52,463 bases of DNA from Candidatus Lloydbacteria bacterium (GCA_043719805.1 JAYSTI010000055.1:68760-121222), one strand, 5' to 3'. Shown: positions 4,051-26,041, numbered from the stretch's first letter. Numbers and translations: made by a program. Notes: a model not told the origin generated them from the letters alone.

Positions 4051-4326
4051 ATGGAACAGAGTGCTACGATCACAAAAACGAAGCCGATTGCAGCGCCAGC
4101 ACTTAGTGCGGAAGAACGTGTACATGCGGTCATCGGGCGCGTGCGACCATACATCCAATCTCATGGTGGTGACGTGTGGGTTTCCGGAATCGTGGGCGCA
4201 ATACTCACGCTTAAGATAGAAGGAAGTTGTGCACAATGCCCTCTCGCCTCTTTGACGTATAATAAGATAGTAAAAACACTCCTCAATGAAGAGGTGCCGG
4301 AAATCACGGAAATTGTGCTCACCTAA
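4051..4326 (+). CDS. NifU-like (Nfu C-terminal domain) Fe-S assembly protein
   Basis: 91 aa with IRPYIQSHGGDV...L.GSCAQCPLASLT, which carries the CxxC of the NifU C-terminal domain. Confidence 0.8.
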   Translation: MEQSATITKTKPIAAPALSAEERVHAVIGRVRPYIQSHGGDVWVSGIVGAILTLKIEGSCAQCPLASLTYNKIVKTLLNEEVPEITEIVLT

Positions 4327-4361: not shown

Positions 4362-4622
4362 ATGTCCGAAACACGAGAATATCCACGCACAAAGGAGGGA
4401 TCAAATATCGGCAAGATTGTCATCGACCGCGACCTCTGCATCTCCGCGATATCATGCATCGCCGTTTCCGAAGCAACATTCCAACTCGACGACGAGAGCA
4501 AGGTCGTTGCCATTGATCCAAATGCTGCCGATGATGCGACCCTCACTGCCGCAGCAGAATCATGCCCGACAAAAGCAATCATTCTTTTTGATACAGCCGG
4601 AAAGCAAATCTTTCCTCTCTAA
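4362..4622 (+). CDS. Small single-cluster ferredoxin with three Cys
   Basis: 86 aa. IDRDLCISAISC...AAESCPTKAI aligns to the CxxXxxC...CP pattern of monocluster ferredoxins. Only C26, C32 and C68 are present. Confidence 0.7.
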   Translation: MSETREYPRTKEGSNIGKIVIDRDLCISAISCIAVSEATFQLDDESKVVAIDPNAADDATLTAAAESCPTKAIILFDTAGKQIFPL

Positions 4623-4631
4623 CTTACGCAT

Positions 4632-5873
4632 ATGCAGAGCGTCACCTATCTCATTATCGGAGGAGGCATCGCGGGCACGACTGCGGCAGAAACACTCAGG
4701 AAGCGGGATGCCAACGCCTCCATCACCATCATCACTGATGAACCACATCGCCTTTATTCACGCGTGCTTCTTTCGAAGCCGGCATTTTTGACCGGCACGC
4801 AGGATTTCGAATCTGTCTGGATGAAAAAAAAGGAATGGTATATCGCGAACAACATCACACTTCTGACTGGTCGGAGTGCGGCAAAACTTGATGCGGGAAA
4901 TAAAATACTCACCCTATGGGACGGCGAAACATTTCACTATGAGAAACTCCTGATTGCTACCGGAACGCACAATCGCATGTGGACAATTCCCGGAGCAGAC
5001 AAAAACAGCGTGCACTACTTACGCACACTCGACCACGCCAAGGCAATCATTGAGGACCTTCGTGTGGGTAAAAAACACGCCGTGATGGTCGGAAGTGCCT
5101 GCGTCACCTATGAGGTTGCGGATATTCTTCACTCCAAGGGCATCGCCATTACCGAGGTCATGCGCGAGCATTACTTCTGGCAACCGGCACTTTCTGAAGC
5201 AGAGTCAAGTATCGTCGAAGGGCGACTTACGGAGGGGGGCGTCACGCTCATCCGCGACATGGAGATAGTAGAAGTCTTGGGCGATACTGAAGTCACAGGC
5301 GTTGTTCTCAAAGACGGGCGTCGTCTCGATTGCGACATGGTATTTGCGTTCATCGGCGTTGATGTTCCCGTCGACTGGCTCACCTCCTCAGGGATAAAGC
5401 TTGAACGCGGCGTCCTCGCAAATGAATACCTCGAAACCTCACTCCACGATGTCTGGACGGCAGGCGACGTCGCACGATTCAAAGACGTCATGCTCGATGA
5501 TGTCGTCATGATGGGCAACTGGATGAATGCGACAAAGCAAGGAGAAACGGCAGCATGCAACATGCTTGGAGATAGAAAATGCTATCAACTCGTATCTTTT
5601 CACTCGAGCCACGGCTTTGGCGACATGATCTCCTTCGCCGGTGACGGCCGTGCACTGCCTGACCGCGAATACATCATGCGAGGAAATATTGCCGACCGCA
5701 AACTCGGACGACTTATCTTGCGTGGCAACCACGTTGTCGGAGCAACAATGATCAATCGCACGCAAGAACTCGCCACCATCGTAAAACTCATCACCGCACG
5801 CATCGACGTTTCAAACAAAAAGACCGAACTCGCCGACGCGAACTTCGATCTCAAAACGCTGTTGCCGCTCTAG
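4632..5873 (+). CDS. FAD-dependent pyridine nucleotide-disulfide family oxidoreductase (ferredoxin/rubredoxin-reductase-like)
   Basis: The N-terminal IIGGGIAGTTAAE is a dinucleotide fold, LLIATG and TAGDVA motifs are present, and there is a C-terminal reductase-type domain. The second Rossmann motif is degenerate (see findings). Confidence 0.8.
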   Translation: MQSVTYLIIGGGIAGTTAAETLRKRDANASITIITDEPHRLYSRVLLSKPAFLTGTQDFESVWMKKKEWYIANNITLLTGRSAAKLDAGNKILTLWDGETFHYEKLLIATGTHNRMWTIPGADKNSVHYLRTLDHAKAIIEDLRVGKKHAVMVGSACVTYEVADILHSKGIAITEVMREHYFWQPALSEAESSIVEGRLTEGGVTLIRDMEIVEVLGDTEVTGVVLKDGRRLDCDMVFAFIGVDVPVDWLTSSGIKLERGVLANEYLETSLHDVWTAGDVARFKDVMLDDVVMMGNWMNATKQGETAACNMLGDRKCYQLVSFHSSHGFGDMISFAGDGRALPDREYIMRGNIADRKLGRLILRGNHVVGATMINRTQELATIVKLITARIDVSNKKTELADANFDLKTLLPL

Positions 5874-5883
5874 CCGCAGGGTT

Positions 5884-7917
5884 TTATTTTGCCGACATAA
5901 ACCGAGCATCTACAATATGTGCTTGGTTTTTTGTTGCAATGACGGGATTGAGGTCAATTTCAGTGATTTGCGGATTTTCGGAGGCGAGGCGGCCCATCAT
6001 GACAAGTAATTGTGCGAGCGCCTCCTTATCGATAGGCTCAGAACCGCGGAATCCTTCGAGATATTTCACGCCTGCGATTTCATCAATCATCAAACGTGCC
6101 TCATCGATAGCGAAGGGCGCAATGCGCATCGACACGTCACTCAAAAGTTCCACAAAAATTCCGCCAAGGCCAAAGACGATGACCGGCCCAAATGTTGCAT
6201 CACGTTTCATTCCGATAATAACCTCCTTCCCTTTTACCATTGGCTGAAGGAGCATTCCCTCAATTGAGGCGCCCGGCGATACTGCCATAACTCCTTTTTC
6301 AATGTCATCCCACGTGCGCAGAACATCGGCGCCACCTACATTGAGTCGCACTGCTTGTGCTTCGGTCTTGTGCACGACATTTCGCGAAACCACCTTCATT
6401 GCCACTTTTTCAACACAGAGTTCAGAGAATATTTCCCTCGCATCATCTTTTGTGTGTGCGAGTGAGCCGAAAATTGCGAGGTCATATTTTGCCAGTAGCG
6501 CCGACGAGGCCTCATGGGAAAGCATGGTTGCCGTTGAAGCAGTGTGAATTTTTGCAGGGAGTGGAATTTTTTTCTTTGGCGTGAGCGCATCGAGCACGAA
6601 GACAGCGTCTGAGGGTAAGTCAAAATTCACCATTCCATTTGCGAGGAGCACATCAATACCCGCGCGCATGACCTCTCCCCCCATGAAGACGGGAATGATG
6701 GGTTTTATGTTTTTATATGCAACGATTGCCTCGGCGATAGCCTTTGCATCGGTCATCATCTGCGGAGTTACAATCACGATAATTGCATCAACATCTTTTT
6801 TTTGTGCAACAATATCGAGCGCCGACTTGTATCGGTCCGCACCTGCATCGCCGATGACGTCGACAGGATTTCCCACTGCCGCCATAAATGGAAGCACCAA
6901 GCGTAACGCGTTTTTCGTCGCATCGTCAAATTGTACGAGCTCCATTGACTCGGAAAGCTCGACAAGGTCTGCGGCATTCACTGACGGACCGCCGCCGTTT
7001 GTGACGATGGCAATACGAGTCTTGTCTCCCCAATTCGTACCTAGTGTCAAAATTTTTGCGGCGTTAAAAAGATCCCGGAGATTTGTCATCGTCGCAATTC
7101 CCGCCTGATGACATGCGGCGGTAAATATCGCATCCTCAGGTGCAAGGGAACCGGTATGGCTCATGACTGCGGCACTTCCCCGTGCGGAGCGACCTGAACG
7201 TAAGAGAATAATCGGTTTTTTCTTCTCTTTGACTACTTCTTTTGCCACGGAAAGAAATCGTGCGCCATCGGAGACGTGCTCCAAATAAACGAGAATAGCT
7301 TTTGTGTCAGGGTCATTCCCCATGCATTCCAGCATCGCGACTTCGGATACACCTGCCTCATTGCCGAGACTCACAAATTTTGAGATGCCGACACCCTCGG
7401 AGCGTGACCATTCGATGAACGCGGTGCCGATAGCTCCCGATTGTGAAACAAAACCAATTCCTCCGGGTAGTGGCTTGTGCAATGCGAATGAAGCATTCAG
7501 GTCCGCATTACCGTCGATAACACCAAGACAATTTGGACCAAGGAATGGGAGCCCTGACTCACGGCCGATTTCTGCAAGTTCTTCTTCAAGCAACTTCCCT
7601 TTTTCACCCGCCTCTTTGAAACCCGCAGAAATCACCACTGCCGCCTTGACTCCTTTTGCAATACAAGCACGAAGGGCTTCGGGTACGAGGTCCGAGCGGA
7701 TTGCAATAACCGCAAGGTCAGGAGTACCGGGAACCGCTTCGATAGAAGCAAATGCGGGAATACCAAGCACCACCTCGTAGTCAGGAGTAACAGGGTAAAG
7801 AGTGCGACTCCTTCCCGCAAGAAGGTTCTTCATGATTGCCGAGCCGACGTGCCCGTCTTCGGGGCGCGCCCCAACCACCATGACCGACTCGGGATGAAAG
7901 AATTTTTCAAGATTCAT
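5884..7917 (-). CDS. Acetyl-CoA synthetase (ADP-forming), fused alpha/beta (acetate--CoA ligase, ADP-forming)
   Basis: 677 aa. The N-terminus has a CoA-binding fold (VMVVGAR...) and LGPNCLG. SQSGA and a ligase-CoA domain follow, then a C-terminal ATP-grasp domain. Confidence 0.9.
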   Translation of the reverse strand: MNLEKFFHPESVMVVGARPEDGHVGSAIMKNLLAGRSRTLYPVTPDYEVVLGIPAFASIEAVPGTPDLAVIAIRSDLVPEALRACIAKGVKAAVVISAGFKEAGEKGKLLEEELAEIGRESGLPFLGPNCLGVIDGNADLNASFALHKPLPGGIGFVSQSGAIGTAFIEWSRSEGVGISKFVSLGNEAGVSEVAMLECMGNDPDTKAILVYLEHVSDGARFLSVAKEVVKEKKKPIILLRSGRSARGSAAVMSHTGSLAPEDAIFTAACHQAGIATMTNLRDLFNAAKILTLGTNWGDKTRIAIVTNGGGPSVNAADLVELSESMELVQFDDATKNALRLVLPFMAAVGNPVDVIGDAGADRYKSALDIVAQKKDVDAIIVIVTPQMMTDAKAIAEAIVAYKNIKPIIPVFMGGEVMRAGIDVLLANGMVNFDLPSDAVFVLDALTPKKKIPLPAKIHTASTATMLSHEASSALLAKYDLAIFGSLAHTKDDAREIFSELCVEKVAMKVVSRNVVHKTEAQAVRLNVGGADVLRTWDDIEKGVMAVSPGASIEGMLLQPMVKGKEVIIGMKRDATFGPVIVFGLGGIFVELLSDVSMRIAPFAIDEARLMIDEIAGVKYLEGFRGSEPIDKEALAQLLVMMGRLASENPQITEIDLNPVIATKNQAHIVDARFMSAK

Positions 7918-7927
7918 ATTATTTGTT

Positions 7928-8050
7928 AGGACTTATGTAAATGAATGAAATTCGAGGCACGGGGTGGCAATGTCCCAAAAGAATATTCTGATATTTTGAT
8001 GGGACTTGCGGGGCCCCGTAACGATGAAGTTCGTCATTTACAAAAGTCCT
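7928..8050. repeat. 17-bp inverted repeats (one mismatch) bracketing the OFOR-beta/ACD intergenic spacer
   Basis: aggacttatgtaaatga at 7928-7944 pairs with tcatttacaaaagtcct at 8034-8050. An internal cggggccccg palindrome lies between them. Confidence 0.6.
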
Positions 8051-8826
8051 TAGAGTTGCTGCTCAAATGTTGGCCTGTCTGCGCGATAGAAAATTCCCAT
8101 CGGGATTTTTCCGTCATCGCGTTTCGTCGCATGATACGCAGCATCAAGATTCGTCGTGTCATGATCCTCAGGAAGCCACACGATGTGCTCCTTGTAGAAA
8201 TCGCGTGTATCAAAAAATGTGATGCATGGCTGAGCGATATCGATGAATGACATGCCCTTGTGTGCGATTGCGGCTTTCATTATCTCCTTTGTCTTTTCAT
8301 ACTCTCCCGCATAAGCACGCGCGACAAATGTTGCCCCTGCGTTCATCATCATGCGTAGTGGGTCGATTGGCTCCTCAATAGAACCAGATGGTCGCGTGAG
8401 ACCTTTGAATCCTTTCGGCGAAGTCGCAGTTGCCTGCCCGGTCGTGAGGGCAAATATCTGATTGTCATGAATAAAGACATTGATATCGCTATTGCGTTGA
8501 GCTGCATGGATGAGATGTGACAACCCCTCTGAGTATGAGTCACCATCACCGGAGAACGCCACCACCGTAAGTGCGTCGTTCGCCGCCTTGATGCCCTCAA
8601 TCGCAGGAATTGCGCGACCATGAAGTGCGTTAAATGTATTCATGTTGAGATAGTCGAGAATCTTTGCATGGCAACCGATGCCGGCCGCTGCAACGATGTT
8701 TTCTTCTTTGAGTGCGCCCACCTCACAAAGCTCAGTCACCGCCTTTCGAAATGCGACAAGAATCTGGTTGTTTGGGCAACCAGGGCACCAAGAGATTTTC
8801 GTGGATGTTGCAAGTTGCGAGGTCAT
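8050..8826 (-). CDS. 2-oxoacid:ferredoxin oxidoreductase, beta (TPP-binding) subunit
   Basis: WCPGCPN near the N-terminus, a GDGD TPP motif (FSGDGDSYSEG) and GIGCH are present. The start overlaps the alpha-subunit stop as ATGA. Confidence 0.9.
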   Translation of the reverse strand: MTSQLATSTKISWCPGCPNNQILVAFRKAVTELCEVGALKEENIVAAAGIGCHAKILDYLNMNTFNALHGRAIPAIEGIKAANDALTVVAFSGDGDSYSEGLSHLIHAAQRNSDINVFIHDNQIFALTTGQATATSPKGFKGLTRPSGSIEEPIDPLRMMMNAGATFVARAYAGEYEKTKEIMKAAIAHKGMSFIDIAQPCITFFDTRDFYKEHIVWLPEDHDTTNLDAAYHATKRDDGKIPMGIFYRADRPTFEQQL

Positions 8827-10553
8827 GATAACGAAAGTTTATTGCGTAATTCTGCGGCAAGTACGGCGGGGTCGAACGGCCGGGCATTGAACTTGAGAAT
8901 TTTCTCATGGCACACGATGCCGGTCTTTTCGCGCAAGAGTCCCGCCAATTGTCCGTTATGATTTGCTTCAACATCGATGATGCGCGCTACGCCATCGAGT
9001 GCCTTCATGACCTCCTCCTCAGGGAACGGCTCCATCCACAATATCTGCACGAGGCGCAGTGGGGTTTCAATCATTTTGCATGCTTCAAGCATGGGGCCTT
9101 TAGTTGAACCGAAGAACACGACGGCATCCTTTGCCGATGAGTCGCCGTACACTTTTACCGTTTCGCAAGTACGCGAATCAGCTCGGATTCCCTCCATTTT
9201 TTTCCATCGTTTCTCCTGCATTGCCTGCACCATTTCCGGTTTGTCGGACGCGACGCCAAACTCATCATGCTCGTAGCTTGTTGCTTTTACTTTTGCGTTC
9301 GAAGTGCCGGGAAATGCGAGTGGGGATACGCCGTCGTCAGCGAAGCGAAACCGGAGATACTCGCCTTCTGTCTGTGGTTTGTGTGGCGTCACTACCTTAG
9401 CGCCCTTTTCAACAATCGTTGTTTGATAACTTTCCGAAAGTTGCTTATCAAGAAGAACAATGGCTGGGGTCTGAAACTTCCATGCCAAATTAAGTGCGGT
9501 TCGCGCGGCGGTGTATGCTTCCGCTGCGTCTCCCGGGGCGATGACAATGCGAGGAAATTCCCCATGACCGGCAGAAACAACGAACCGTAGGTCACCCTGT
9601 GATGTTCTCGTGGCCGCACCTGTCGCCGGACCTTGTCGTTGCGATACGGCAACAGCAAGCGGCATCTCGGTCACACCGGCAAACGAGAATGCTTCCTGCA
9701 TAAGGGCGAATCCTCCCGTTGCGGTGCCGGTGGCAACGCGCTTTCCCGCATAGGCAACACCGAGTGCCATGTTGATTGCAGCGATTTCATCCTCGGGATG
9801 AATCACTGTGAGGTCTGTAGTGACTGCTTCTTTGGCGAGAAAGTGCAAAATACCTGATGCGGGGGTCATGGGATATCCGATATAAAATTCAAGGCCGGCG
9901 GAAAGAAATCCCAAGGCGACAGATTTGTTTCCCTCGAGAAGCTCTCCCGTGTGCACACACCCACCATTCACAGTTAGCTCGCTCTTCGGCATAAGTCCGG
10001 ATTCTTTTGCGGCATCATATCCGCGCATTGCCAGCGAGACATTCATCGCAACACCACCCAAAATGTCGCCAAAGACTTCCCCAAGCATTGCTTCGGCCTC
10101 TTCGCGTGAGCGCCCGACGAGATAGCAATATGCACCAACACCAACCGACGGGCCTGCTGCATGCGGTGCACCGGCCCCCTTTACCGCAGCCATCATCGGT
10201 AGCGCCACCACCTTGCATGAAAGTTCTTTCAGTGCTTCGGCGTGCGGGGCATCCACAAATACCACTGCCCCTTCTTTGAGTTCTTCGAGATGAAGAAGCA
10301 CTGACTCTGAATTCATCGCAATGATCGCATCAAGCGCGGAATGATCGGCGTGCACCTCTCTTGCCCCGTACGTCATTCGACCAAAATTGTGTCCTCCGCG
10401 GATAAGCGACGGGTACTCCATCGTGAGATACACAGAACAGCCGATATGTTGCGCGAGTTCTGCAAGATGCAATCCTCCCTCCTTGATTCCATCCCCCGCG
10501 GCACCCACGACGGCAACCGTAAAGACCGGAATATTTTGTTTTACTGTGTCCAT
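8823..10553 (-). CDS. 2-oxoacid:ferredoxin oxidoreductase, alpha subunit (gamma-alpha fusion type)
   Basis: The N-terminal gamma-like domain reads VAVVGAAGDGIKEGG. The alpha core reads GNKSVALGFLSAGLEFYIGYPMTPAS. The track start at 10556 is TTG; the next codon, ATG at 10553, is preferred. Confidence 0.9.
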   Translation of the reverse strand: MDTVKQNIPVFTVAVVGAAGDGIKEGGLHLAELAQHIGCSVYLTMEYPSLIRGGHNFGRMTYGAREVHADHSALDAIIAMNSESVLLHLEELKEGAVVFVDAPHAEALKELSCKVVALPMMAAVKGAGAPHAAGPSVGVGAYCYLVGRSREEAEAMLGEVFGDILGGVAMNVSLAMRGYDAAKESGLMPKSELTVNGGCVHTGELLEGNKSVALGFLSAGLEFYIGYPMTPASGILHFLAKEAVTTDLTVIHPEDEIAAINMALGVAYAGKRVATGTATGGFALMQEAFSFAGVTEMPLAVAVSQRQGPATGAATRTSQGDLRFVVSAGHGEFPRIVIAPGDAAEAYTAARTALNLAWKFQTPAIVLLDKQLSESYQTTIVEKGAKVVTPHKPQTEGEYLRFRFADDGVSPLAFPGTSNAKVKATSYEHDEFGVASDKPEMVQAMQEKRWKKMEGIRADSRTCETVKVYGDSSAKDAVVFFGSTKGPMLEACKMIETPLRLVQILWMEPFPEEEVMKALDGVARIIDVEANHNGQLAGLLREKTGIVCHEKILKFNARPFDPAVLAAELRNKLSLS

Positions 10554-10559
10554 CAAATT

Positions 10560-10648
10560 ATTATACCAGAAGTTTTCCCATGGGTGCGGTGCATAACAGG
10601 TATACTTTTAAGAAGCTGTTTTTCGCCGTAAACGGTGTTATACTTTGG
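10560..10648. promoter_or_regulatory. Divergent promoter region between OFOR and the hydrogenase (candidate -10 boxes)
   Basis: On the minus strand, TATAAT (10560-10565) ends 6 nt before the OFOR ATG, which would imply a leaderless or near-leaderless mRNA. On the plus strand there is an extended -10-like tgtTATACT at about 10637-10645, and a second TATACT at about 10609-10614. No convincing -35 boxes were found. Confidence 0.3.
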
Positions 10649-11191
10649 ACATTAATTGCCATTTTTTCCTATGGAAACACAAAAAAAATAGCTATCGGTT
10701 GGTTCTCCTTCTCTTGCTGTGAAGACAGCACAATCGTCTTTACTGAGCTCATGAACGACCACTGGCAGGAGTGGAAGCGCACTTTTGATTTCCGCCATGT
10801 AAAAGTGTTGAAAACAAACAACATCATGGATTCATTCGATATCGCATTCATCGAAGGGGCAATGGCAAATGAGGCGCATGTCGAGAAACTCAAACATATT
10901 CGCAGTATTTCTACAAAATTGGTCGCCATCGGCGCTTGCGCCGTTACGGGTGGGCCCTCCGCGCAACGCAACAATTTTACCCCCGAACAAACGGCGAACA
11001 TTCAGTTCCTCGTTGACCGCTTTGGTGCATTGCCCAAGGTGCTCAAAGTTTCTGACGTTGTCACGGTCGACGCTTCTGTCCCCGGCTGCCCAATGAATAC
11101 CGACATCTTCATGAAAGCCGTGTCTGCACTTATCGCCGAGCTCCGCCCTGACTTAGCTACACCGGCCGCTGCGCTTACTCCTACAAATTAA
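10580..11191 (+). CDS. [NiFe]-hydrogenase small subunit, short single-cluster form (start codon uncertain)
   Basis: KKIAIGWFSFSCCEDS ... DIAFIEGA ... LVAIGACAVTGG ... VPGCPM match the core motifs of the NiFe small subunit / NuoB-fold family. The whole protein has only four Cys. The conserved part begins near 10685. Confidence 0.8.
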   Translation: MGAVHNRYTFKKLFFAVNGVILWTLIAIFSYGNTKKIAIGWFSFSCCEDSTIVFTELMNDHWQEWKRTFDFRHVKVLKTNNIMDSFDIAFIEGAMANEAHVEKLKHIRSISTKLVAIGACAVTGGPSAQRNNFTPEQTANIQFLVDRFGALPKVLKVSDVVTVDASVPGCPMNTDIFMKAVSALIAELRPDLATPAAALTPTN

Positions 11192-11207
11192 TGTTCATTC
11201 CACCGTC

Positions 11208-12500
11208 ATGCATACATTCGATTTATCGATGGAACACATCACCAAGATTGAAGGTGACGCTTCCATTTCTGTAAAAGTTGAAGACGGCAAAGTGACGGAT
11301 GTGAAATTCCAGACCGTTGAATACAAACGCTTCTTCACTGAGGCAATGAAGGGAAAAGCAATCATGGCGATTCCGCAACACTTGGCGCGTATCTGCGGCA
11401 CATGTTCGAATGCACACGTCATGGCTGCCATCCTCGCATGCGAAGACGCACTCGACATTGAACCCTCAGAGCAGACCAATGTGCTGCGCGCACTCACGAT
11501 GCACGGCCTCACCATTCGCGACCATGCGCTCCATCTCTATCTCTTTTCATTACCCGATGTATACGGCAAAGACGCTTTTCTTGACCTCGACGAGAATATT
11601 CCCGAGGAACACCAAATACTTCACGATGGTTTTGGCATCAAGGCTGCGGGAAACTTCCTTGCGACTCTTATTGCGGGACGCTCCGTTCACGCACACTATC
11701 CGACGATAGGCGGCTTCCTTCATTTCCCCGACCAAGTGGGTATCGATGAAGCTATCGCAAAAATGGAAGCAATGCGCCCTGCGGCACTTCGTCTGGTCAA
11801 AATATTCCTCGACCAGCCATTCCACTTTGACCGCAACACCAATTACCAGGCACTCATTCCTAACGGCAACTTCGGATATATCACGGGGGCAATTCGCACA
11901 AGTCGCGGTGAAATATTTCCCAAGAGTGAGTACCGCAATCTTCTGGAACATGTCGTTCTCCCCTACTCACAGGCATCCGCATACAAATATAAAGGCGATG
12001 GCTACATGGTGGGCTCGCTTGCACGCATCAACATCGCGAAGGACAAACTTCACCCCAACACCAAGGCATCGATCCCCGAGGCGCTCGCGCTCTTTCCATC
12101 GACGGATATTTTCCACAATAACCTTGCACAGGCGATCGAGATACTTCATTCACTCGATGAATCGGTTGAAATTCTCCGCACGCGCAAATTTACTCCTGAG
12201 CCTTTGATCAAAAAGCCTGCACGTGAGGCAGTCGGTGTCGGCATTGTCGAAGCTCCGCGCGGAACGCTTTATCACAAACTCGTCTTGGGCGCAGACGGAC
12301 TCATCGAAGAAGGCGAGGTCATTGTTCCCACAGGTCAGAATCAGATCAACATCGAACAAGACATGGGCCGCTACGTCGAAGGACTCCTCGCAAATGGAGT
12401 ACCCCGAGAAAAAATGCCGCTGGAGATGGAGAAGTTGGTGAGAGCCTACGACCCCTGCATGTCCTGCGCGTCCCACTTCCTCAAAGTGAAGTGGATATAA
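11208..12500 (+). CDS. [NiFe]-hydrogenase large subunit (group 3-like by size and motifs)
   Basis: 430 aa. The N-terminal ITKIEG is present. The L1 motif is RICGTCSNAH (RxCGxCxxxH) and the C-terminal L2 motif is DPCMSCASH, followed by a 7-residue tail (FLKVKWI). Confidence 0.9.
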   Translation: MHTFDLSMEHITKIEGDASISVKVEDGKVTDVKFQTVEYKRFFTEAMKGKAIMAIPQHLARICGTCSNAHVMAAILACEDALDIEPSEQTNVLRALTMHGLTIRDHALHLYLFSLPDVYGKDAFLDLDENIPEEHQILHDGFGIKAAGNFLATLIAGRSVHAHYPTIGGFLHFPDQVGIDEAIAKMEAMRPAALRLVKIFLDQPFHFDRNTNYQALIPNGNFGYITGAIRTSRGEIFPKSEYRNLLEHVVLPYSQASAYKYKGDGYMVGSLARINIAKDKLHPNTKASIPEALALFPSTDIFHNNLAQAIEILHSLDESVEILRTRKFTPEPLIKKPAREAVGVGIVEAPRGTLYHKLVLGADGLIEEGEVIVPTGQNQINIEQDMGRYVEGLLANGVPREKMPLEMEKLVRAYDPCMSCASHFLKVKWI

Positions 12501-12530
12501 CAAAAAGAATATAGTGATACGAAATTAAAA

Positions 12531-12557
12531 GAGAAACCCAATGAGGTTTCTTTTTTA
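12531..12557 (+). terminator. Intrinsic terminator after the hydrogenase large subunit
   Basis: A 7-bp stem (agaaacc / ggtttct) with a 6-nt loop is followed by TTTTTT. Confidence 0.7.
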
Positions 12558-12726
12558 ATTGCCACCGTAACCGAAGTTTAATCTTACCGAGAAAAAATAT
12601 ATGCCCCATCATCTGAACCAAAATGTTTGAGCCTTTACCCTGAAAAGGATTAAACAAATTATTTCTCAATAATGAGAAACTTGGTGTGTTGAAGTCATCG
12701 ATTTCCACAAAAATACACACTATACA

Positions 12727-12747
12727 AAAAGCCCCTCGGGGGCTTTT
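12727..12747 (-). terminator. Intrinsic (bidirectional-looking) terminator
   Basis: aaaagcccc tcg ggggctttt is a perfect 9-bp stem lying 20 nt beyond the stop of the 12767-13225 gene. Confidence 0.7.
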
Positions 12748-12766
12748 GTTGATGGTGCACAAAGAC

Positions 12767-13225
12767 TCACTTGCTCCAGATGACCTTGATTGTCTTCTTG
12801 TGGTCGCCCTTGTCGAACTCGATACTTTCCACCCCATGCAGTGCAACACTGTGGGCCACAATGCGCGCTTGAGTCTTGAGACTTCTCGGCGTGCCTTTCG
12901 GGACGGCCTTTCTGCACATCGCACAGTAGACCTCCGAGATGACCGAAGCAACGCCGTCAGTTCTCCAGCCGGAGTCGTGGTAGCAAGAATTCTGGAACTC
13001 GTCCTCCCTGTGCCTGCTGATCATGAGGTCATCGATAGATGTCCCAACGAGCGTGTAGTTGGAGGGTCGCCAGAAGAAAAATCCGATATGGCGAGTGAAT
13101 GTGCCAGCCTCCATACTGCCGACACTGAGTCTGAGCGGCAGAAAGAGCGCCTTGTCGCGTGTGCCACGCGGAAGGGCGAGCTCAACCATGGCAATGACTG
13201 CGTCCGAAATATCCTGCTTGAACAT
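12767..13225 (-). CDS. Hypothetical protein (152 aa)
   Basis: ATG at 13225 (MFKQDIS...); the track start at 13246 is TTG. A terminator lies downstream. No family recognised. Confidence 0.5.
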   Translation of the reverse strand: MFKQDISDAVIAMVELALPRGTRDKALFLPLRLSVGSMEAGTFTRHIGFFFWRPSNYTLVGTSIDDLMISRHREDEFQNSCYHDSGWRTDGVASVISEVYCAMCRKAVPKGTPRSLKTQARIVAHSVALHGVESIEFDKGDHKKTIKVIWSK

Positions 13226-13956: not shown

Positions 13957-14013
13957 TGTGTTACTACGTAGATATTGAATAATATTGTAAGGGAAATAAA
14001 CAATCAAATCGTA

Positions 14014-14610
14014 ATGTCAAAAACGAAAACAGGAGGCAGCGAAACAAACGGTGTCTCAAAAAGGCGGGTTGGGCATGTGCAGCAAAAAATACTGCTTCTC
14101 TTGCTCGGCGGGTTGGCGCTCGGGCTTTCGCGGTCTCCGAAACAATACTTTCGTGTGGTCGGCGAAATAAAGGCAGAGTGGAACGCCATCAATCGTCGCG
14201 CACTGAATCAGGCGATCCAGAATCTCTACAAGTCAAAGCTCGTCAGCACCAAAAGTGACAAAAATGGCACACTCACCCTCATCTTGTCGAAGGAGGGCAA
14301 AGAGGTGGCGCTCCGTTATGATCTCGACAACATGGTCATAAAAATGCCTGCATATTGGGACAAAAAATGGCGGGTGGTTATGTTTGATGTGCCGGAAAAT
14401 CTAAAACGTGTCCGCGATACTCTCCGCATGCATTTCAAGGGAATGGGATTCTATGAGTTTCAAAAATCAGTTTTTGTGCATCCCTATCCCTGCGCGAGTG
14501 AGGTCGAATATATCGTGGAATTCTACAATGCACGGCGCTACATCAGATTCATCACCGCCACCGAGATCGACAATGCACCGGAACTCATGCGCCACTACAG
14601 TCTAAGCTAA
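14014..14610 (+). CDS. PaaX-like regulator: winged-helix N-terminus plus Cas2-like-fold domain
   Basis: The N-terminal QQKILLLLL...LYKSKLV region looks like a wHTH. WRVVMFDVPENLKRVRDTLRMHFKGMGFYEFQKSVFVHPYPC matches the Cas2-like central domain of PaaX-like proteins. The track start at 13975 is TTG; the first ATG is at 14014. Confidence 0.7.
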   Translation: MSKTKTGGSETNGVSKRRVGHVQQKILLLLLGGLALGLSRSPKQYFRVVGEIKAEWNAINRRALNQAIQNLYKSKLVSTKSDKNGTLTLILSKEGKEVALRYDLDNMVIKMPAYWDKKWRVVMFDVPENLKRVRDTLRMHFKGMGFYEFQKSVFVHPYPCASEVEYIVEFYNARRYIRFITATEIDNAPELMRHYSLS

Positions 14611-15187: not shown

Positions 15188-16417
15188 TTACAAAAACAAC
15201 AGGTCTCTACTCGTGTCATCAAAATCGGTGCCGAGTTTTTTGCGACTGAGGGCGTTGTGGGTTGAGGCGAGATAGACGAGACGTTTGCCGTGCTTCTCTT
15301 CCAGAGAGTCTATCCGACGATGTATGGACCCGAGCTTATCGGCATTGTCGGTCTCGCCAAACAAGTCTCCCTGTGAGACCCCGCATGGAACGAGGTCGTG
15401 CAACGTGACGCCCGTCGTGCGATACAGCACTCCGCGTTTGTGCAACTCTCCGAACTTTGCCGCCACGAGCGCAGTAATTATCTCGGGGGCGCTCGTCGGT
15501 ACCGAAAGAGCTAGTGTACATGCGGCGTACTTGAAATCTTTGGTCTTGAGAAATAGAGAAACTTTTTGGGGCGATAGCTGATACCGTCGCGCTTTTGCGC
15601 ACGCATCCTCAATGTGTTTTGAAAGCTGGGAAAGCAAAAATATTTTGTCATTCGTCGGAGGATGGAATGTCTGAGTTTTTTGAATAGAGGAATATGACGT
15701 CTTTTTTCTCGAATCAACATCCGAGACCAATATCCCGTTGAGTTCAAGCCAGATGGTCTCGTACGGTTTTGAAAAGTTTTCCCTCACCCAACAAATTTCC
15801 TTTCGGGAAAAATCGAGCGCCGTGTGTACCCCCTTCTTTTTCATGAACTCTGAAGTACGCGGTCCGATGCCCCACACACTCTCGATTGAAGTTTTGACCA
15901 GAAAGTCCGGCGCAGTGGTGGCATGAATAATTGTCAGACCGTTCGGCTTTACCCATTTTGTAGCAATTTTCGCGAGTACTTTTGTTGGCGCGATACCAAT
16001 CGTCACGGATAGATTGAGCTCCTCGGCAGCCTCCCGCTTGATGCGCTCGGCAATTTGTCGGTAGGTCATCTTGAGCGGCGGCTCGAGCCCCGTGAGGTCG
16101 GCGAAGCATTCATCAATACTGTACTCTTCGACGTCGTCCGCATATCGGCGGACAATGTCGAACATCGTACTCGAGTAGTGCGCATACGCCGCATAGTCTC
16201 CGGGAAGAATGACGACACTTGGGAACTCTTTCTTCACGCGGAATATCGGCATCCCACGAATAATGCCGAGCGCCTTCGCCTCGTACGACAATGCAGACAC
16301 GATGCCGCGCTCTTCGCCGGTGACGACAGGAAAGCCTTTCAACGTGGGGTCTTTCGCGACCTCAACGCCGACAAAAAACGCATCCCCATCCATATGTAAA
16401 ATTGTTTTCTCAGTCAT
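15188..16417 (-). CDS. dinB: Y-family DNA polymerase (Pol IV / DinB-like)
   Basis: The sequence has HMDGDAFFVGVE, SIDECFADLTG, and GIAPTKVLAKIA and VWGIGPRT helix-hairpin-helix regions. Confidence 0.9.
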   Translation of the reverse strand: MTEKTILHMDGDAFFVGVEVAKDPTLKGFPVVTGEERGIVSALSYEAKALGIIRGMPIFRVKKEFPSVVILPGDYAAYAHYSSTMFDIVRRYADDVEEYSIDECFADLTGLEPPLKMTYRQIAERIKREAAEELNLSVTIGIAPTKVLAKIATKWVKPNGLTIIHATTAPDFLVKTSIESVWGIGPRTSEFMKKKGVHTALDFSRKEICWVRENFSKPYETIWLELNGILVSDVDSRKKTSYSSIQKTQTFHPPTNDKIFLLSQLSKHIEDACAKARRYQLSPQKVSLFLKTKDFKYAACTLALSVPTSAPEIITALVAAKFGELHKRGVLYRTTGVTLHDLVPCGVSQGDLFGETDNADKLGSIHRRIDSLEEKHGKRLVYLASTHNALSRKKLGTDFDDTSRDLLFL

Positions 16418-16576
16418 GCTGCTACAGAGAACTTATGCAGAGACGCTGGAAATGTTCATATTTTGAATGCAGTGCGAAGTCTCGGACTGAGGCAATGTCG
16501 AGAAGTCGTAGTCATCTACGACGACTCGGCTTGCCGAAGGAGAGACGAGCAATGCGTCAAAATTTGAATATTTCCG

Positions 16577-17239
16577 TTAGGCGCGCTTGATGACGCCCAC
16601 CACCTTGCCGTTAATCGCGAAATCATCCCCCGGCATGATAAGTATTGGCTTGAATGTTTCGGTAGATTCGGAAGAGAGTATGATTTGATTATTTTTTTTA
16701 TCAAATTTATATTTCTTGAGATTTGCGGCGCCACCGATGATAGAGAGCACGTAGTCGCCGTCTTTGATGCTGCGGTCTTCGGAGTCGATGAGGACGTAGT
16801 CGCCGTTTTCAATATTCTTTCCTTTGATATTTGCACGGTTGAGCGAATGCCCTGACGCACGCAGGGCAAATATGCCACTCGTGCGCGGAAGTATTGTCCT
16901 CTGCACAGTGAGATAGCCCTCGATGTTTTCTTCGGCAAGAAGTTCCGCAGGACCACAGTTGGCGGAGCCGACGAGCGGAACAGAAATGAATTCGAATCCT
17001 GAAAGTGTGCCGGAGAGCGACATGCTGAAGTCGAATGCCTGGAGCGAAATGCCGCGGGGTTGATTGGCCTCCTTTTTGAGATAGCCACCTTCTTCCAGCT
17101 TTTTTAAATAGTGATGTGCAGTAGAAACTGAAGCGAGCTTGAAGTGCTTGCAAATCTCCTCGTGCGACGGGGCGTAGCCATGCTTGCCCGTGTAGGTAGT
17201 GACGAAGTCGAGCACTTCTTTTTGTTTTTTGGTTATCAT
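16577..17239 (-). CDS. lexA: LexA repressor (S24 peptidase)
   Basis: The N-terminal wHTH reads QKEVLDFV...GYAPSHEEICKHF. The C-terminal S24 domain has LRASGHSL (Ser) and NLKKY (Lys). Confidence 0.9.
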   Translation of the reverse strand: MITKKQKEVLDFVTTYTGKHGYAPSHEEICKHFKLASVSTAHHYLKKLEEGGYLKKEANQPRGISLQAFDFSMSLSGTLSGFEFISVPLVGSANCGPAELLAEENIEGYLTVQRTILPRTSGIFALRASGHSLNRANIKGKNIENGDYVLIDSEDRSIKDGDYVLSIIGGAANLKKYKFDKKNNQIILSSESTETFKPILIMPGDDFAINGKVVGVIKRA

Positions 17240-21300: not shown

Positions 21301-21988
21301 TTGTTGATACCCTGGGTCTAGCATACCCACTTGACCCAATCGTATCCTCACTAAAAAAGTTCCCATTGGAATACGAGGCCATAAACTGAAAACACTCTTT
21401 TATTCCGGCACAGTTATTCATTTCTGCGCCGCTACTCGCAAGCTTCTTTCCTTCTCCAAGAAGTGTCGTACGGTTTTTGTGTTCGTTAGTCCAATACTCA
21501 AACGGGCTCCGTCCCGTATTGAGGCCTCCTGCACCATCGCCCATGTGTGGGTCATTGCGTGTATGGTCGGGCACCGATGCGTCCTCAATCAGGTGTATGA
21601 CATGCCCCAACGTTACCATAGCAGTATGCTCATCCCCTTTCGCATACGCCTCTATACCCCTTCCCCACGTGAATTCATTCCCCGAAAGGTTGTTGGTCAC
21701 CCAGTCGATTGACGGACGATAATCATTCAACCCAACGCCATGCACAGGGTCATAAAAATGTGTAAGACTGCGGGTTGATGGGGTGTCCTCATCTATCGAC
21801 CCTTGCACCAAAAGTGTCGTATCAGTATCACTCAGTACGTCCCCCTGTCCCATTTCATAGAAACTCACTATCTCCTGAGAGAGTCCCGCGTGAGTGGTGG
21901 CTGGCGCGTACGCAAAAGAACCTTGTGCAAAAAGGCACAAGGTCATCGCAATAACGATGCCTCGAATTGTATATCGGATAATTTTCAT
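18368..21988 (-). CDS. Large secreted multidomain protein: Zn-phospholipase-C-like N-domain, Pro-rich linker, Ig-like region, lamin-tail domain, right-handed beta-helix
   Basis: Signal peptide MKIIRYTIRGIVIAMTLCLFAQGSFA. THFYDP and GHVIHLIEDASVPDHT resemble the alpha-toxin zinc-site motifs. PTIPPPPPPIVEE is the linker. ELILNEVAWGG...DEWIELFN is LTD-like. The C-terminus has repetitive beta-helix segments ending in NNYWGDPDGP. Confidence 0.85.
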   Translation of the reverse strand: MKIIRYTIRGIVIAMTLCLFAQGSFAYAPATTHAGLSQEIVSFYEMGQGDVLSDTDTTLLVQGSIDEDTPSTRSLTHFYDPVHGVGLNDYRPSIDWVTNNLSGNEFTWGRGIEAYAKGDEHTAMVTLGHVIHLIEDASVPDHTRNDPHMGDGAGGLNTGRSPFEYWTNEHKNRTTLLGEGKKLASSGAEMNNCAGIKECFQFMASYSNGNFFSEDTIGSSGYARPRVSTKDEQYAYGQDEISKENVRLYRLVEKTEGGYYTTLAYDEDYSVISEYFDRITPQVIPVGARVIDLFMTEAKFARAEFIAKQKAEQVRAVVEQAALNNRLSRAGFFGQLAFGMGDLFVSRPAAFLSNTGSAIASAGSSYLRLSQIMAGDIYYGERMINRSGTITTRIAVVATQDFAVATVAKGVSLAETGAAKVSEEVARIRSLLEILQMARQTLQSVAAATPAKLAVNTPIVGEVLGASTTAIVVSGGIVSSPPAPAYGGRIILGVAQGSAPIPTIPPPPPPIVEETSSTTNEVATTTPDVTPPSAPTILDPSSSPYHTATTNVHLSGTAEASSTVMLSWNEGVIIYALLFATTEDGRWEYDIVLSDTGSDGLGNGGTTTLTLTAEDAAGNSSDATTIDVVVTLPAPEIISPIASTSPRTPLSGELILNEVAWGGTSADVNDEWIELFNTTREELYLSGVTLKSSDDGISLPLHGVLPPRGYLVLSRAHADGTHAVSGPTHILELAFGEGLDDAGEELKLLYATTSSDGVSTEITIDNLAYCLNWCGMGGIGTSMERWRSDRPTGDYVGNWSTDSVGFDRGADSLGDIIGGTPGARNGSNYLLSLGNTIAANLVLSAEDGGYIINGRKVTLTAGNTLTLDPGVVIKSQTSGNSLLNLRGVLLANGTAEKPVIFTTTWDDRFAGDLLGDGDPSVVDTTVRAGGLDFYNTSAGSLLAHVFFYNLKTGPYFDRTTATMTSVSIIDSNDGIELFKSTINASDVLLRNISGNDAIQIYQASTLRISSSTIINVGRSDDAIDIHTSTLVADDIRVDGVGGSILRLNNSTSTVLGVDAGSAAGSVDIFVSGGNTSITDMVLSGGNGTGVTVSGKGTLVLASSTVSDYSFAGIFVAGGGNLSVSSTTLSDNAIGIYLIDGTANIHDSVIDGNGTGISNTDIDAVVDASNNYWGDPDGPTIPSGTPEGDSVSVNVLMDAFLVAPPVI

Positions 21989-22770: not shown

Positions 22771-23781
22771 TTGGAGAGAATGCGCAGCCTTCGGTGCGGC
22801 GGGGGGGCAACACTCCTTGCAGCACTTATCGTTCTAAACATCCTCGTTGGCGTTGCAACCATTATGCTCGGCAGACACTACCCCATCCTAACCGGGCTCG
22901 CTCTGCTTTCGTGGGGATTCGGACTGCGTCACGCGATGGATGCGGACCACATTGCCGCTATAGACAACGTCACGCGCCGTCTCTTATACCGCGGCAAACC
23001 CTCCGTCGGCGTCGGACCGTATTTTTCACTCGGTCACTCGACGATTGTTCTCCTCCTCACCATCCTCATCGTTTTCTTCACCCCATTCATGAATGCGCAC
23101 GTTGATTCGTGGAAGGAAATCGGCGCCATTGTCGGAGCCACTATCTCATCGGTCTTTCTTCTCCTCATCGGCATCATTAACGTCGGCGTACTCTATAAAC
23201 TTATCGGGGTGTGGCGCGACCTGAAGGCGGGAAAAGAAAACCCGTATCACGGACACATGCATCTCGGCGGGCCGATAGAAAAATTATTTCGCCCGCTCAT
23301 CAAATTGGTCGACACAAGTTACAAGATGTACTTCATCGGATTTCTCTTCGGACTCGGCTTCGACACTGCGGCGGAAGTCGGACTCCTTGCCATTTCCGCA
23401 CTCGCGGTCGCCACCGTTCCCCCGTGGGCGATCATCCTCCTTCCGCTTGCATTCATGGCGGGAATGACGCTTCTCGATACGATAAACGGCCTGTGCATGC
23501 TCGGCATCTATTCGTTCGGGGTCTTCGATCATAAGCGCCGCATTTTTTACAACATCAACATGACACTACTTTCGCTCGCGTCTGCACTCCTCATCGGGGG
23601 TACCATCGGACTACGGCTCATCGCGGAACACCTTGGTCTCTCGGGAGGAATATTTTCCGTCGTGCAACATCTCTCACTCGACAATCTCGGCTACATCCTC
23701 GTAGCACTATTTGTCACGAGTTGGCTCGTAGCCTTTTTCGGACTGCGCACAAAGCAACCTAGCGAGCCAGTACCTCTCTAA
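22771..23781 (+). CDS. NiCoT (HoxN/HupN/NixA family) nickel/cobalt transporter
   Basis: The signature RHAMDADHIAAIDN (HxxDADHI) and LGFDTAAEV are present. It has about 8 TM helices. The track start is TTG at 22771; an ATG at 22780 is an alternative. Confidence 0.9.
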   Translation: MERMRSLRCGGGATLLAALIVLNILVGVATIMLGRHYPILTGLALLSWGFGLRHAMDADHIAAIDNVTRRLLYRGKPSVGVGPYFSLGHSTIVLLLTILIVFFTPFMNAHVDSWKEIGAIVGATISSVFLLLIGIINVGVLYKLIGVWRDLKAGKENPYHGHMHLGGPIEKLFRPLIKLVDTSYKMYFIGFLFGLGFDTAAEVGLLAISALAVATVPPWAIILLPLAFMAGMTLLDTINGLCMLGIYSFGVFDHKRRIFYNINMTLLSLASALLIGGTIGLRLIAEHLGLSGGIFSVVQHLSLDNLGYILVALFVTSWLVAFFGLRTKQPSEPVPL

Positions 23782-24211
23782 TAGAGGAGACTATTTTCGT
23801 GAATGCTTCTTCTTCCGCCATTCCCGGAGGAATGCCGATGATGATGACTCCCTTCAACTTCCCCAGCTTCGCAAGATAGCGGAGATTGAAAAGCGCATCG
23901 AAGTCGTGCATCGACACGGTGGGTGACACGGCAAATTCGTCGAGGGAGTGGAAGGCGTGAATATCAGAAAGCCCGACAACGGTATCGACGAGCACGAATG
24001 GGTCGAGAATATTCCACTCTTCGTTCGGGTCCAAAGCAGTGAAGCGAACATCAGGAAACTCAAGGGATAGTCGCGGGAGGAGTCGCAGCGGCATGGCGTC
24101 CATCGCAATGTCGGGATTTCCAAAAACGTGAATAGTTTCCCGTGTCACGATGTTAAATAGTGAGATTTGCGAATGTAATATGTCGAAGCGTGTACTTTCG
24201 GAGAGCGACAA
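23759..24211 (-). CDS. Hydrogenase maturation endopeptidase (HycI/HybD family)
   Basis: VFGNPDIAMDAMP matches GNxxxxD(E/D), LVDTVVG supplies the Asp, and SMHDF...VIIIGIPPG supplies the His. The TTG start at 24211 overlaps the upstream gene by 59 nt. An in-frame GTG at 24148, 4 nt after that gene's stop, is a plausible alternative. The 3' end overlaps the convergent NiCoT gene by 23 nt. Confidence 0.7.
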   Translation of the reverse strand: MSLSESTRFDILHSQISLFNIVTRETIHVFGNPDIAMDAMPLRLLPRLSLEFPDVRFTALDPNEEWNILDPFVLVDTVVGLSDIHAFHSLDEFAVSPTVSMHDFDALFNLRYLAKLGKLKGVIIIGIPPGMAEEEAFTKIVSSIREVLAR

Positions 24212-24893
24212 CCTGCTTCTGGGTCAGCTTTTCACAGATGATTCCCCAATGTATCGAGACAAGGTCACCCTTCTTGATCTGCTCAATATCATATTCCGCC
24301 TCAAGTTCCCTTGTGAGTTTTCGTTCAACCGGCTCTCCGAGAGTGAGCTTTTCGTTGACAAGAACTAGTCGAGACGTGCGCACCGTTACCACGGGACCAA
24401 GCGCACTCACCACTTCCCCCCAACTCACACGACACTCATCAAATTCACTGAAAAGTTTTGTGCGATCAACTTGTCCGGTTCGCTTCCACACATCGAGTAC
24501 GTGAAATGAGTGGTGCGGAACAGCACCAAGACCAATGAGAGACTCGACGAAACTAAATGTTTTCCCAAATTTTTTCTTAAGTGACAACCCATCGATGAGA
24601 TGCCAGTAAAAATCATTTTTTGAAACTCTGTCGAGAAGTTCGTTCCCCACCCAATATGCTTCGACGACGCGGTCATCGAGTGGGTCGATAATCTTATTCG
24701 CACGCGCGATGTGAGAAAGATATGGATACATCGCCTCAAATGCCTGCAATATCTCGCGAAGTCCCAGATCATCGCCCTCTTCTTTAATCCGATCTTTAAG
24801 TTCAAGTACGCGATCAGGCCCACAGTAGTGCAGACGATTAGGACCAAATGCATATCGAGAGCAGCGCAACATGCCTTGTGCAGGAATATCCAT
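24153..24893 (-). CDS. Conserved-looking hypothetical protein with a HypC/HupF-like C-terminal module
   Basis: ATG at 24893 (MDIPAQGMLRCSRYAFGPNRLHYCGPD). The C-terminal CRVSWGEVV...KKGDLVSIHWGIICEKLTQKQVVAL resembles the HypC pattern C-x4-G-x-V ... GD-x-V-x-x-H-x-G-[FI]-[AI]. It sits in an apparent operon with the maturation protease. Confidence 0.55.
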   Translation of the reverse strand: MDIPAQGMLRCSRYAFGPNRLHYCGPDRVLELKDRIKEEGDDLGLREILQAFEAMYPYLSHIARANKIIDPLDDRVVEAYWVGNELLDRVSKNDFYWHLIDGLSLKKKFGKTFSFVESLIGLGAVPHHSFHVLDVWKRTGQVDRTKLFSEFDECRVSWGEVVSALGPVVTVRTSRLVLVNEKLTLGEPVERKLTRELEAEYDIEQIKKGDLVSIHWGIICEKLTQKQVVALRKYTLRHITFANLTI

Positions 24894-25911: not shown

Positions 25912-26041
25912 GCATTTATTTTACCCCACGAGAACATAAAAGCAACTTTGTGACAACGAACCGTGCCATAATGGCTCCCCACACACAGTGCGCTATACTA
26001 TAGACATTACTAGAGGCCAAGTGGTCATAAGCACTACTTCT

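Follow-up and report, generated by a model that had tools for sequence, protein, structure and literature searches.

A hyd2 [NiFe]-hydrogenase of Candidatus Lloydbacteria and its linkage to a ferredoxin and a ferredoxin reductase-like flavoprotein

Introduction

How does a [NiFe]-hydrogenase exchange electrons with the cell when no homologue of the usual partner subunits is encoded beside it? The question is raised by a 52,463-nucleotide stretch of Candidatus Lloydbacteria DNA (GCA_043719805.1, JAYSTI010000055.1:68760-121222), the whole of which is called the window here and is numbered from its first letter. Two adjacent genes within it encode a truncated small subunit (HydS) and a large subunit (HydL). 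A prediction made from the sequence alone (the original prediction) took the pair for a minimal heterodimer of undescribed architecture that would re-oxidise ferredoxin directly and dispose, as H2, of electrons from a neighbouring 2-oxoacid:ferredoxin oxidoreductase (OFOR). We find that HydSL is a real two-gene [NiFe]-hydrogenase, ordinary for its lineage, and that genes for a ferredoxin (Fd) and for a ferredoxin reductase-like flavoprotein (FdR) are recurrently linked to it. The reading that we consider probable is a ferredoxin-centred redox node, in which HydSL would work with Fd and FdR in place of the HyhB/HyhG subunits and OFOR would feed the same ferredoxin. The genes on which this reading turns are the following.

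4362..4622, plus strand: Fd, single-cluster ferredoxin with three cysteines, 86 residues (Pfam Fer4_13/15/19)
4632..5873, plus strand: FdR, FAD/NAD(P)H ferredoxin reductase-like flavoprotein, 413 residues (PF07992 and Reductase_C)
5884..7917, minus strand: ADP-forming acyl/acetyl-CoA synthetase (ACS), fused alpha-beta, 677 residues (CoA_binding, Succ_CoA_lig, ATP-grasp_5)
8050..8826, minus strand: OFOR beta (TPP_enzyme_C and PFO_beta_C)
8823..10553, minus strand: OFOR alpha, a gamma-alpha fusion (POR and POR_N; TIGR03710)
10554..10670, no strand: divergent intergenic region between OFOR alpha and HydS (block conserved in closest relatives)
10671..11191, plus strand (open reading frame 10580-11191): HydS, truncated [NiFe] small subunit (PF01058, Oxidored_q6)
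11208..12500, plus strand: HydL, [NiFe] large subunit, 430 residues (PF00374 and Ni-Fe motifs)
12524..12559, plus strand: intrinsic terminator hairpin (folding energy and terminator scan)

Results

Placement of the hydrogenase in the hyd2 clade

HydL matches PF00374 and, as had been predicted, its Ni-Fe ligand motifs are intact (RICGTCSNAH and DPCMSCASH); the C-terminal His is followed by a 7-residue tail, FLKVKWI, and this short tail is conserved. Against the PDB, the top match, at 194 bits and over the full length, is the alpha subunit of Pyrococcus furiosus soluble hydrogenase I (SHI), followed by MvhA (158 bits) and, lower down, by Acetomicrobium mobile HydL (138 bits), HoxH (107 bits) and FrhA (about 80-93 bits). 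The best NCBIfam models are ShyA (240 bits, cutoff 700) and HydA (205 bits, cutoff 880), both matched far under their equivalog cutoffs. Identities to the best 120 homologues range from 69 to 96%, and wherever a source is named it belongs to Paceibacterota, Parcubacteria, Minisyncoccia or Vogelbacteria. When one genome per GTDB species was scanned, at least 576 of them proved to carry a relative, the nearest being a Candidatus Lloydbacteria metagenome-assembled genome (MAG) at 95% identity. When a library clustered at 50% identity is searched, the clade is reduced to one full-length representative (61%), followed by a few sequences at 44-48% and then by a 3b-like continuum. An exact look-up of the HydL sequence returned no record; the look-up of OFOR alpha did match.

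Jaffe et al. (2020; BMC Biol 18:69, PMC7304191) described 'hyd2' as a clade of 3b-related [NiFe]-hydrogenases specific to the Candidate Phyla Radiation (CPR). Its small subunit is truncated (mean 164 residues vs about 250), there are no proximal same-strand genes for the beta (Fe-S) and gamma (NAD-binding) subunits, and in 'some' or 'a subset' of loci its neighbours include a PF07992 family and a separate Fe-S family; 'its function remains uncertain', and we found no later literature on hyd2 function. The window has in common with those loci the host lineage, the 3b-related branch, a small subunit of about 164 residues and a nearby hypC-like family. HydL groups with the CPR-specific, 3b-related sequences, and all of its best 80 GTDB loci are CPR-type MAGs; the small subunits of its relatives are consistently short, and beta and gamma genes are missing while a PF07992 protein and an Fe-S protein are encoded nearby. 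Similarity and the published tree place HydL in hyd2, and the window hydrogenase appears to be a member of that clade with no difference in kind, so the architecture presented as undescribed had already been described in 2020. Beyond that study, the counts given here make Fd-FdR the commonest redox neighbour and distinguish two layouts that recur.

For these counts we compared the proteins of the window with all open reading frames of 84 hyd2 loci, namely the best 80 from GTDB, three metagenome contigs and the window itself, with flanks of ±10 kb in the relatives.

The truncated small subunit

HydS is present in 83 of the 84 loci. A small subunit of roughly 170-200 residues had been predicted upstream of HydL, and the Oxidored_q6 open reading frame found there has 203 residues, that of its relatives 164-172, with a family core of median 158 residues (83 loci). 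Of the 261 positions in the sulfhydrogenase delta (HydD) model, HydS covers 3-159; in an alignment with P. furiosus HydD, it stops just past the GCP motif, whereas HydD runs on into an eight-Cys domain (of the HydD sequence in that alignment, the middle part was verified by PDB search). Because the short length is conserved in 83 loci, the HydS C-terminus is a genuine family trait and not the assembly truncation that the original prediction had allowed for. The bodies of both HydS and HydL are intact and match every invariant column of their families.

What remains in HydS is predicted to be the proximal-cluster site only. Three Cys residues are invariant; at a fourth position, 69 of 78 sequences have Cys and the other 9 Ser. 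Comparison with the E. coli NuoB and HycG sequences and with the partly verified HydD sequence shows that the N-terminal cluster motif SC[C/S]ED (residues 44-50 of the 203-residue frame; window 10691-10760) stands in place of the CxxC of HycG and HydD, and that an invariant Asp occupies the place of the second Cys. This arrangement suggests a likeness to the tandem Cys of NuoB or else an Asp-ligated cluster, and the fourth ligand is uncertain because of the invariant Asp at the canonical second-Cys position. A PDB search with the N-terminal 78 residues of HydS did not align the Cys motif.

Visual inspection of the region between HydS and HydL showed a BRO-N-like gene in two loci (L010 and L011), a 373-residue gene without known function in two (L010 and L013), a DHODH-like gene in one (L058) and a NicO-like transporter gene in two more (L041 and L046, of which the first is supported by a BLAST match). 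These inserts were considered as extra redox subunits and rejected, being mobile-element-like, DHODH-like or NicO-like genes.

Comparison with known hydrogenases

The lack of flanking diaphorase, F420/Mvh-type and membrane subunits is borne out over the whole window, where a Pfam search of open reading frames of at least 150 residues found no HyhB/G, HoxEFU, MvhD/Hdr or FrhB and no Ech/Mbh/Hyc membrane subunits. Nor are there HyhB/G-like genes in the Pfam-annotated ±10 kb of four relatives, or among the gene families that recur in at least 21 of the 84 loci.

The closest characterised enzyme by large subunit is P. furiosus SHI (HydBGDA; PDB 9e15, 9e1j, 9nez), a group 3b hydrogenase that HydSL resembles in its L1/L2 motifs, in the short tail after the His and in being cytoplasmic; both enzymes are presumed to be NAD(P)-linked. 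Beyond the large subunit the likeness ends. The SHI small subunit has about 260 residues and two further clusters, whereas HydS stops at about 165 and lacks the C-terminal Cys-rich domain, so that the proximal, medial and distal series of group 3b is incomplete. The proximal-cluster motif is SCxGC in SHI (from the partly verified sequence) and SC[C/S]ED in HydS. The sulfite reductase-like beta and gamma subunits of SHI have no counterpart in the window, and HyhB (Fe-S) and HyhG (FAD/NAD(P), sulfite reductase-like), which in group 3b are encoded with the catalytic genes to give a heterotetramer, are missing from the window and from the annotated flanks of the relatives.

Small subunits of comparable length are found elsewhere. 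The best PDB sequence match to HydS is HoxY of group 3d (5xf9_C, 189 residues; E 2.1e-12), and the sixth is HydS of the A. mobile NiFe-HydABCSL enzyme (7t2r_E, 179 residues); both presumably carry the proximal cluster only. They dock onto diaphorase modules of the NuoE/F/G type, and no NuoE/F/G-like gene is present in the window; their cognate large subunits are also more distant from HydL (107 and 138 bits vs 194 for 3b). A group 4 or NuoB-lineage assignment is not borne out: matches of HydS to NuoB and MbhJ are marginal (E 0.18-0.3), the window has no membrane subunits, and the one reminder of NuoB in HydS is the tandem-Cys 'SCC'. A sensory (group 2b-like) role was also considered, and was rejected on similarity and context.

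Ferredoxin and flavoprotein genes are recurrently linked to HydSL

The ferredoxin that had been noted 6 kb from the hydrogenase does have exactly three Cys residues, in the pattern CxxAxxC...CP, and so do 50 of 50 homologues, all with Ala at the second position; aligned with the motif CIGCGVC of T. maritima Fd, the Ala falls on the second Cys. This three-Cys pattern is the signature of single-cluster [3Fe-4S] ferredoxins, and we infer that the window ferredoxin is of the [3Fe-4S] type.

Adjacent to it lies FdR (4632-5873), which the original prediction did not mention. The protein has the PF07992 two-dinucleotide-binding fold and a Reductase_C domain, with a ferredoxin gene next to its own. 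Its best PDB matches are PuR (3fg2), ArR (3lxd), PdR (1q1r), TodA, BphA4 and AorC (8c0z_E), and its best NCBIfam match is PadH, followed by HcaD and AndAa, all under cutoff. In phenylglyoxylate dehydrogenase, which belongs to the OFOR family, PadH is the FAD subunit that reduces NAD; AorC comes from the tungsten aldehyde oxidoreductase complex. From these matches the flavoprotein is predicted to be an NAD(P)H:ferredoxin reductase of the PdR/BphA4/PuR type. Its best relatives belong to the PdR-Pdx-P450cam, BphA4-BphA3 and PuR-Pux chains or are PadH and AorC, and such operons likewise have a small ferredoxin gene immediately upstream. The hyd2 chain would differ from them in having a [NiFe]-hydrogenase as its terminal enzyme and a 3-Cys Fer4 ferredoxin, not a [2Fe-2S] or Rieske protein. 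The literature that we searched documents no reductase-ferredoxin-hydrogenase chain of this three-component type.

Comparison of synteny in related genomes, which the original prediction had proposed, yielded two recurrent layouts across the 84 loci, with Fd and FdR as the partner candidates. FdR is found near hyd2 in 57 loci, in 25 of them directly upstream of HydS, and the ferredoxin in 50; a NifU-like gene precedes Fd in 28, as it also does in numerous metagenome loci. The layouts are distributed as follows.

Type A, [NifU]-Fd-FdR-HydS-HydL uninterrupted on one strand (distance from FdR to HydS about -18 to +324 nt): 25 loci
Type B, the same array split only by an inverted ACS-OFORbeta-OFORalpha cassette, the window included: 28 loci
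FdR within 10 kb in another arrangement: 4 loci
No Fd-FdR within 10 kb, adequate flank: 14 loci
Flank too short to judge: 13 loci

The claim that the hydrogenase has no partner subunits therefore holds only for homologues of the known ones and is misleading with respect to Fd and FdR, the likely electron partners, which are linked to it in the 25 loci of type A and the 28 of type B. Upstream of HydS in the loci without Fd-FdR that we inspected, there was no alternative redox module, only unrelated genes. A reciprocal scan of metagenome contigs from the FdR alignment returned 80 loci (35-74% identity). Fd lies immediately upstream in 55 of the 68 with enough upstream flank, and 15 of the 22 with at least 8 kb of downstream flank have HydL no more than 10 kb downstream.

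Directly 3' of HydL and on its strand, 22 loci (e.g. L030:11844-12299 and L036:10343-10789) encode an unannotated family of about 150 residues with no Pfam match. The family is absent from the window; in some of the clade it may belong to the operon as its third member.

The OFOR-ACS cassette

The cassette that separates FdR from HydS in the window comprises an OFOR of the two-subunit type, with no delta ferredoxin subunit, and the ACS. OFOR alpha matches TIGR03710 at 517.9 bits, over the cutoff of 482.75; ACS reaches 469 bits against TIGR02717, under the cutoff of 567. HydS and HydL are co-directional, and the cassette genes lie head-to-head with HydS on the opposite strand. In the survey, OFOR alpha was found in 41 of 84 loci, OFOR beta in 40 and ACS in 34, and the cassette adjoins the hydrogenase in 39. 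The Fd-FdR pair, on the evidence of gene neighbourhoods, appears also to serve, or to be shared with, the OFOR module.

Candidate maturation genes

A set of accessory genes is found at 22.8-24.9 kb, and a NifU-like gene precedes Fd.

4051..4326, plus strand: NifU/Nfu-like Fe-S carrier, 91 residues, with CxxC (PF01106, E 1.7e-17)
22771..23781, plus strand: NicO high-affinity nickel transporter (PF03824, E 5.5e-71)
23765..24133, minus strand: putative divergent HycI-type maturation endopeptidase, about 123 residues (weak PF01750 matches across its family)
24153..24875, minus strand: DUF6390 protein (PF19927, E 1.3e-59)

The protease, DUF6390 and NicO genes, which lie 10-12 kb downstream of HydL in the window, directly follow HydL in three other loci (L004, L006 and L008). 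The protease-like family, of about 125 residues, occurs in 66 of the 84 loci, usually 1.2-2.5 kb downstream of HydL. PF01750 matches 29 of 31 of its members, all below the gathering score (best E 3.8e-5; window copy E 0.023), and D12, D50 and H76 are invariant. These weak but consistent profile matches make the family a candidate for a very divergent HycI-type maturation protease, which would fit the 7-residue tail that HydL keeps after its C-terminal His. DUF6390 is encoded next to the protease gene in 56 of the 84 loci. In an AlphaFold2 model from an alignment of database homologues (mean pLDDT 73.7), the N-terminal domain is helical and the C-terminal one is an OB-like beta domain, for which the best fold match in the PDB is HypC (2z1c_B; E 4.3e-3, probability 1.00). 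An invariant Cys opens this C-terminal domain, and the N-terminal domain contains an invariant CSRYAFGPNRLHYCGPD and PHHSFH. The model suggests that DUF6390 may be a lineage-specific hydrogenase maturation factor or chaperone. Profiles of both families gave no significant match to PDB sequences. E. coli HypA, HypB and HycI had no match in the 2.16 Mb of loci searched, and HypC/D/E/F adjoin hyd2 in only two or three of them, so that the Hyp machinery is usually encoded elsewhere.

The HydS start and the ends of the transcription unit

The ATG conserved as the HydS start lies at 10671 and is one base out of frame with the body of the gene, the break falling at a run of eight A residues (A8, 10681-10688). 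From this ATG the window N-terminus reads METQKK..., and three relatives (L004, L005 and L014), which carry one base more at the A run, start METxKKIAIGW. The open reading frame itself begins at an in-frame upstream ATG, 10580, and ends at 11191; the extension so produced would add a hydrophobic helix and translates DNA that is conserved as non-coding in the relatives. A metagenome contig from the Logan assemblies (SRR22198343_75071, L168) agrees with the window in every base over 7.7 kb and has the same A8 allele. The break may reflect a genuine frameshift or an error in the homopolymer, or slippage may rescue the site.

OFOR alpha starts with the ATG at 10553 on the minus strand, and the divergent spacer measures 117 bp if HydS begins at its conserved ATG and 26 bp if it begins at that of the open reading frame, in agreement with the divergent control region of about 25-115 bp originally predicted. 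An extended -10-like sequence, TGTTATACT, at 10636-10644 is inside a block conserved with L005 and L014 in a DNA alignment that is informative for the closest relatives only, and by this conservation alone it may be a promoter element; a consensus promoter scan of 10300-12800 found no two-hexamer sigma-70-type site. The strong terminator predicted after HydL is also present, as a 15-bp hairpin with an A-tract and a T-tract at its flanks (dG -14.9 kcal/mol, z -5.5), and appears from this shape to be bidirectional. Scans of the window for tRNA genes and Rfam families gave no match.

Just 3' of the hydrogenase is a gene for a PaaX_M/Cas2-like domain protein (13975-14610, plus strand), placed in the same way in L005, and beyond it are a DinB/ImpB-type polymerase and a LexA-like repressor (15188-17239, minus strand). 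A DHODH gene (25988-27124) adjoins the DUF6390 cluster. Two large proteins on the minus strand are unrelated to the hydrogenase: a 1206-residue one with Big, LTD and beta-helix domains, probably at the cell surface (18368-21988), and a 2209-residue alpha-2-macroglobulin-like one (MG2, A2M, bMG10; 34564-41193).

Discussion

The reading that we favour, as probable, makes ferredoxin the centre of a redox node. The catalytic core would be HydL with HydS, the latter holding the proximal Fe-S site alone, and the HyhB/HyhG diaphorase would be replaced in function by two unrelated, separately encoded proteins, the ferredoxin and FdR (4362-5873). Electrons would pass, in either direction, between NAD(P)H, the FAD of FdR, the ferredoxin, the proximal cluster of HydS, the Ni-Fe site and H2, with the ferredoxin probably docking at the site of the missing medial/distal domain. 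OFOR would reduce the same ferredoxin while making acyl-CoA, from which the ADP-forming synthetase would then yield ATP, and the ferredoxin would act as a hub from which OFOR electrons either leave as H2 via HydSL or are stored as NAD(P)H via FdR. On their own, Fd, FdR and HydSL would form an NAD(P)-linked hydrogenase that works in both directions and whose diaphorase is non-homologous. Clade, domains, cysteine patterns and gene linkage are observed here; which proteins touch, which clusters they hold, which nucleotide serves and which way electrons flow are inferred. Because Fd-FdR is either contiguous with HydSL or separated from it by the cassette, the likely unit has at least four genes and a link to NAD(P)H. 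A hub shared by OFOR and the hydrogenase also fits the loci in which Fd-FdR and ACS-OFOR occur without a hydrogenase. More tentatively, and with confidence that falls a little short of calling it probable, hyd2 may be a distinct class of [NiFe] enzyme, in which a single-cluster HydS with SC[C/S]ED, a detachable [3Fe-4S] ferredoxin in place of the medial and distal clusters, a P450-type reductase as diaphorase, and maturation by a DUF6390 HypC-fusion and a HycI-like protease go together; hundreds of CPR species would then possess a modular hydrogenase coupled to both NAD(P)H and ferredoxin.

Several points weigh against the ferredoxin-centred node. The potential of a [3Fe-4S] ferredoxin may be too high for efficient H2 evolution. 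Fourteen loci with adequate flanks have no Fd-FdR within 10 kb, and three metagenome loci (L093, L101 and L145) have NifU-Fd-FdR beside ACS-OFOR with no hydrogenase within 10 kb; because the pair occurs with OFOR-ACS alone, it may primarily serve OFOR. Genome coverage was 52 kb here and ±10 kb in the relatives, and HyhB/G could be encoded elsewhere. Finally, expression of HydS in this strain is uncertain because its conserved start is out of frame.

Some of these points have been taken up in other explanations. The original prediction, of a bare HydSL heterodimer that does nothing but re-oxidise OFOR-reduced ferredoxin and vent H2, would leave FdR to OFOR, which it would serve as a PadH-like, NAD-reducing outlet, or to some other part of metabolism. 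In its favour are the head-to-head placement of OFOR-ACS and HydS in the window, the adjacency of the two in 39 of 84 loci, the metagenome loci that have Fd-FdR and OFOR-ACS without a hydrogenase, and PadH, a subunit of an OFOR-family enzyme, as the best NCBIfam match of FdR. Its ferredoxin-linked role is plausible because a ferredoxin-reducing OFOR adjoins the hydrogenase in about half of the relatives. Fd-FdR linkage speaks against the heterodimer being bare: an FdR serving OFOR alone is hard to explain because of the 25 type A loci, in which the genes for Fd, FdR, HydS and HydL follow one another on one strand at short distances or with overlaps, in most cases without an OFOR inside 10 kb. 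We judge this explanation rather unlikely, though it is the main rival. The same type A loci, with no obvious low-potential donor nearby, can be read in the uptake direction, in which HydSL would oxidise environmental H2 and pass electrons through ferredoxin and FdR to NAD(P)+ in a reductant-poor, host-dependent cell. The potentials of 3-Cys ferredoxins, usually above that of the H+/H2 couple, would favour this flow, group 3b and 3d enzymes are bidirectional, and the gene content is as compatible with uptake as with evolution. However, the window and 27 other loci put the hydrogenase beside a fermentative OFOR-ACS module making excess reducing equivalents, and we regard uptake as unlikely.

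An ordinary tetrameric group 3b enzyme with HyhB and HyhG encoded elsewhere in the genome would be consistent with the greatest similarity of HydL being to 3b enzymes and with the part of the genome in view, but we consider it extremely unlikely: HydS is without the whole C-terminal domain in which P. furiosus HydD carries its medial and distal clusters, HyhB/G is missing from the window, from the flanks of four relatives and from the recurrent families, and hyd2 has no proximal beta or gamma genes (PMC7304191). It is also very unlikely that the hydrogenase is inactive or decaying here through its frameshifted HydS start. The ATG at 10671 is out of frame at A8, and the identical sequence of L168 may mean that this is a real allele; that contig may, however, be the source contig itself and not independent. 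The bodies of HydS and HydL are intact with all invariant columns matched, an in-frame ATG exists upstream at 10580, and the conserved start would be restored if the homopolymer is wrong by one base or if transcription slips on A8.

Anoxic groundwater and sediments harbour abundant members of the CPR (Patescibacteria), whose redox balancing is poorly understood. At least 576 species-level genomes carry the hyd2 enzyme, which is biochemically uncharacterised and had its function left open in the only paper that we found describing it. The conserved linkage to Fd-FdR turns that question into a specific, testable model with a small defined gene set, comprising Fd, FdR, HydS and HydL together with the protease and DUF6390 for maturation. 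If the ferredoxin-centred node is correct, a [NiFe] core can swap its diaphorase for an unrelated pair of ferredoxin and ferredoxin reductase, which would be relevant to the evolution of hydrogenases and to the engineering of compact H2 catalysts driven by NAD(P)H or ferredoxin.

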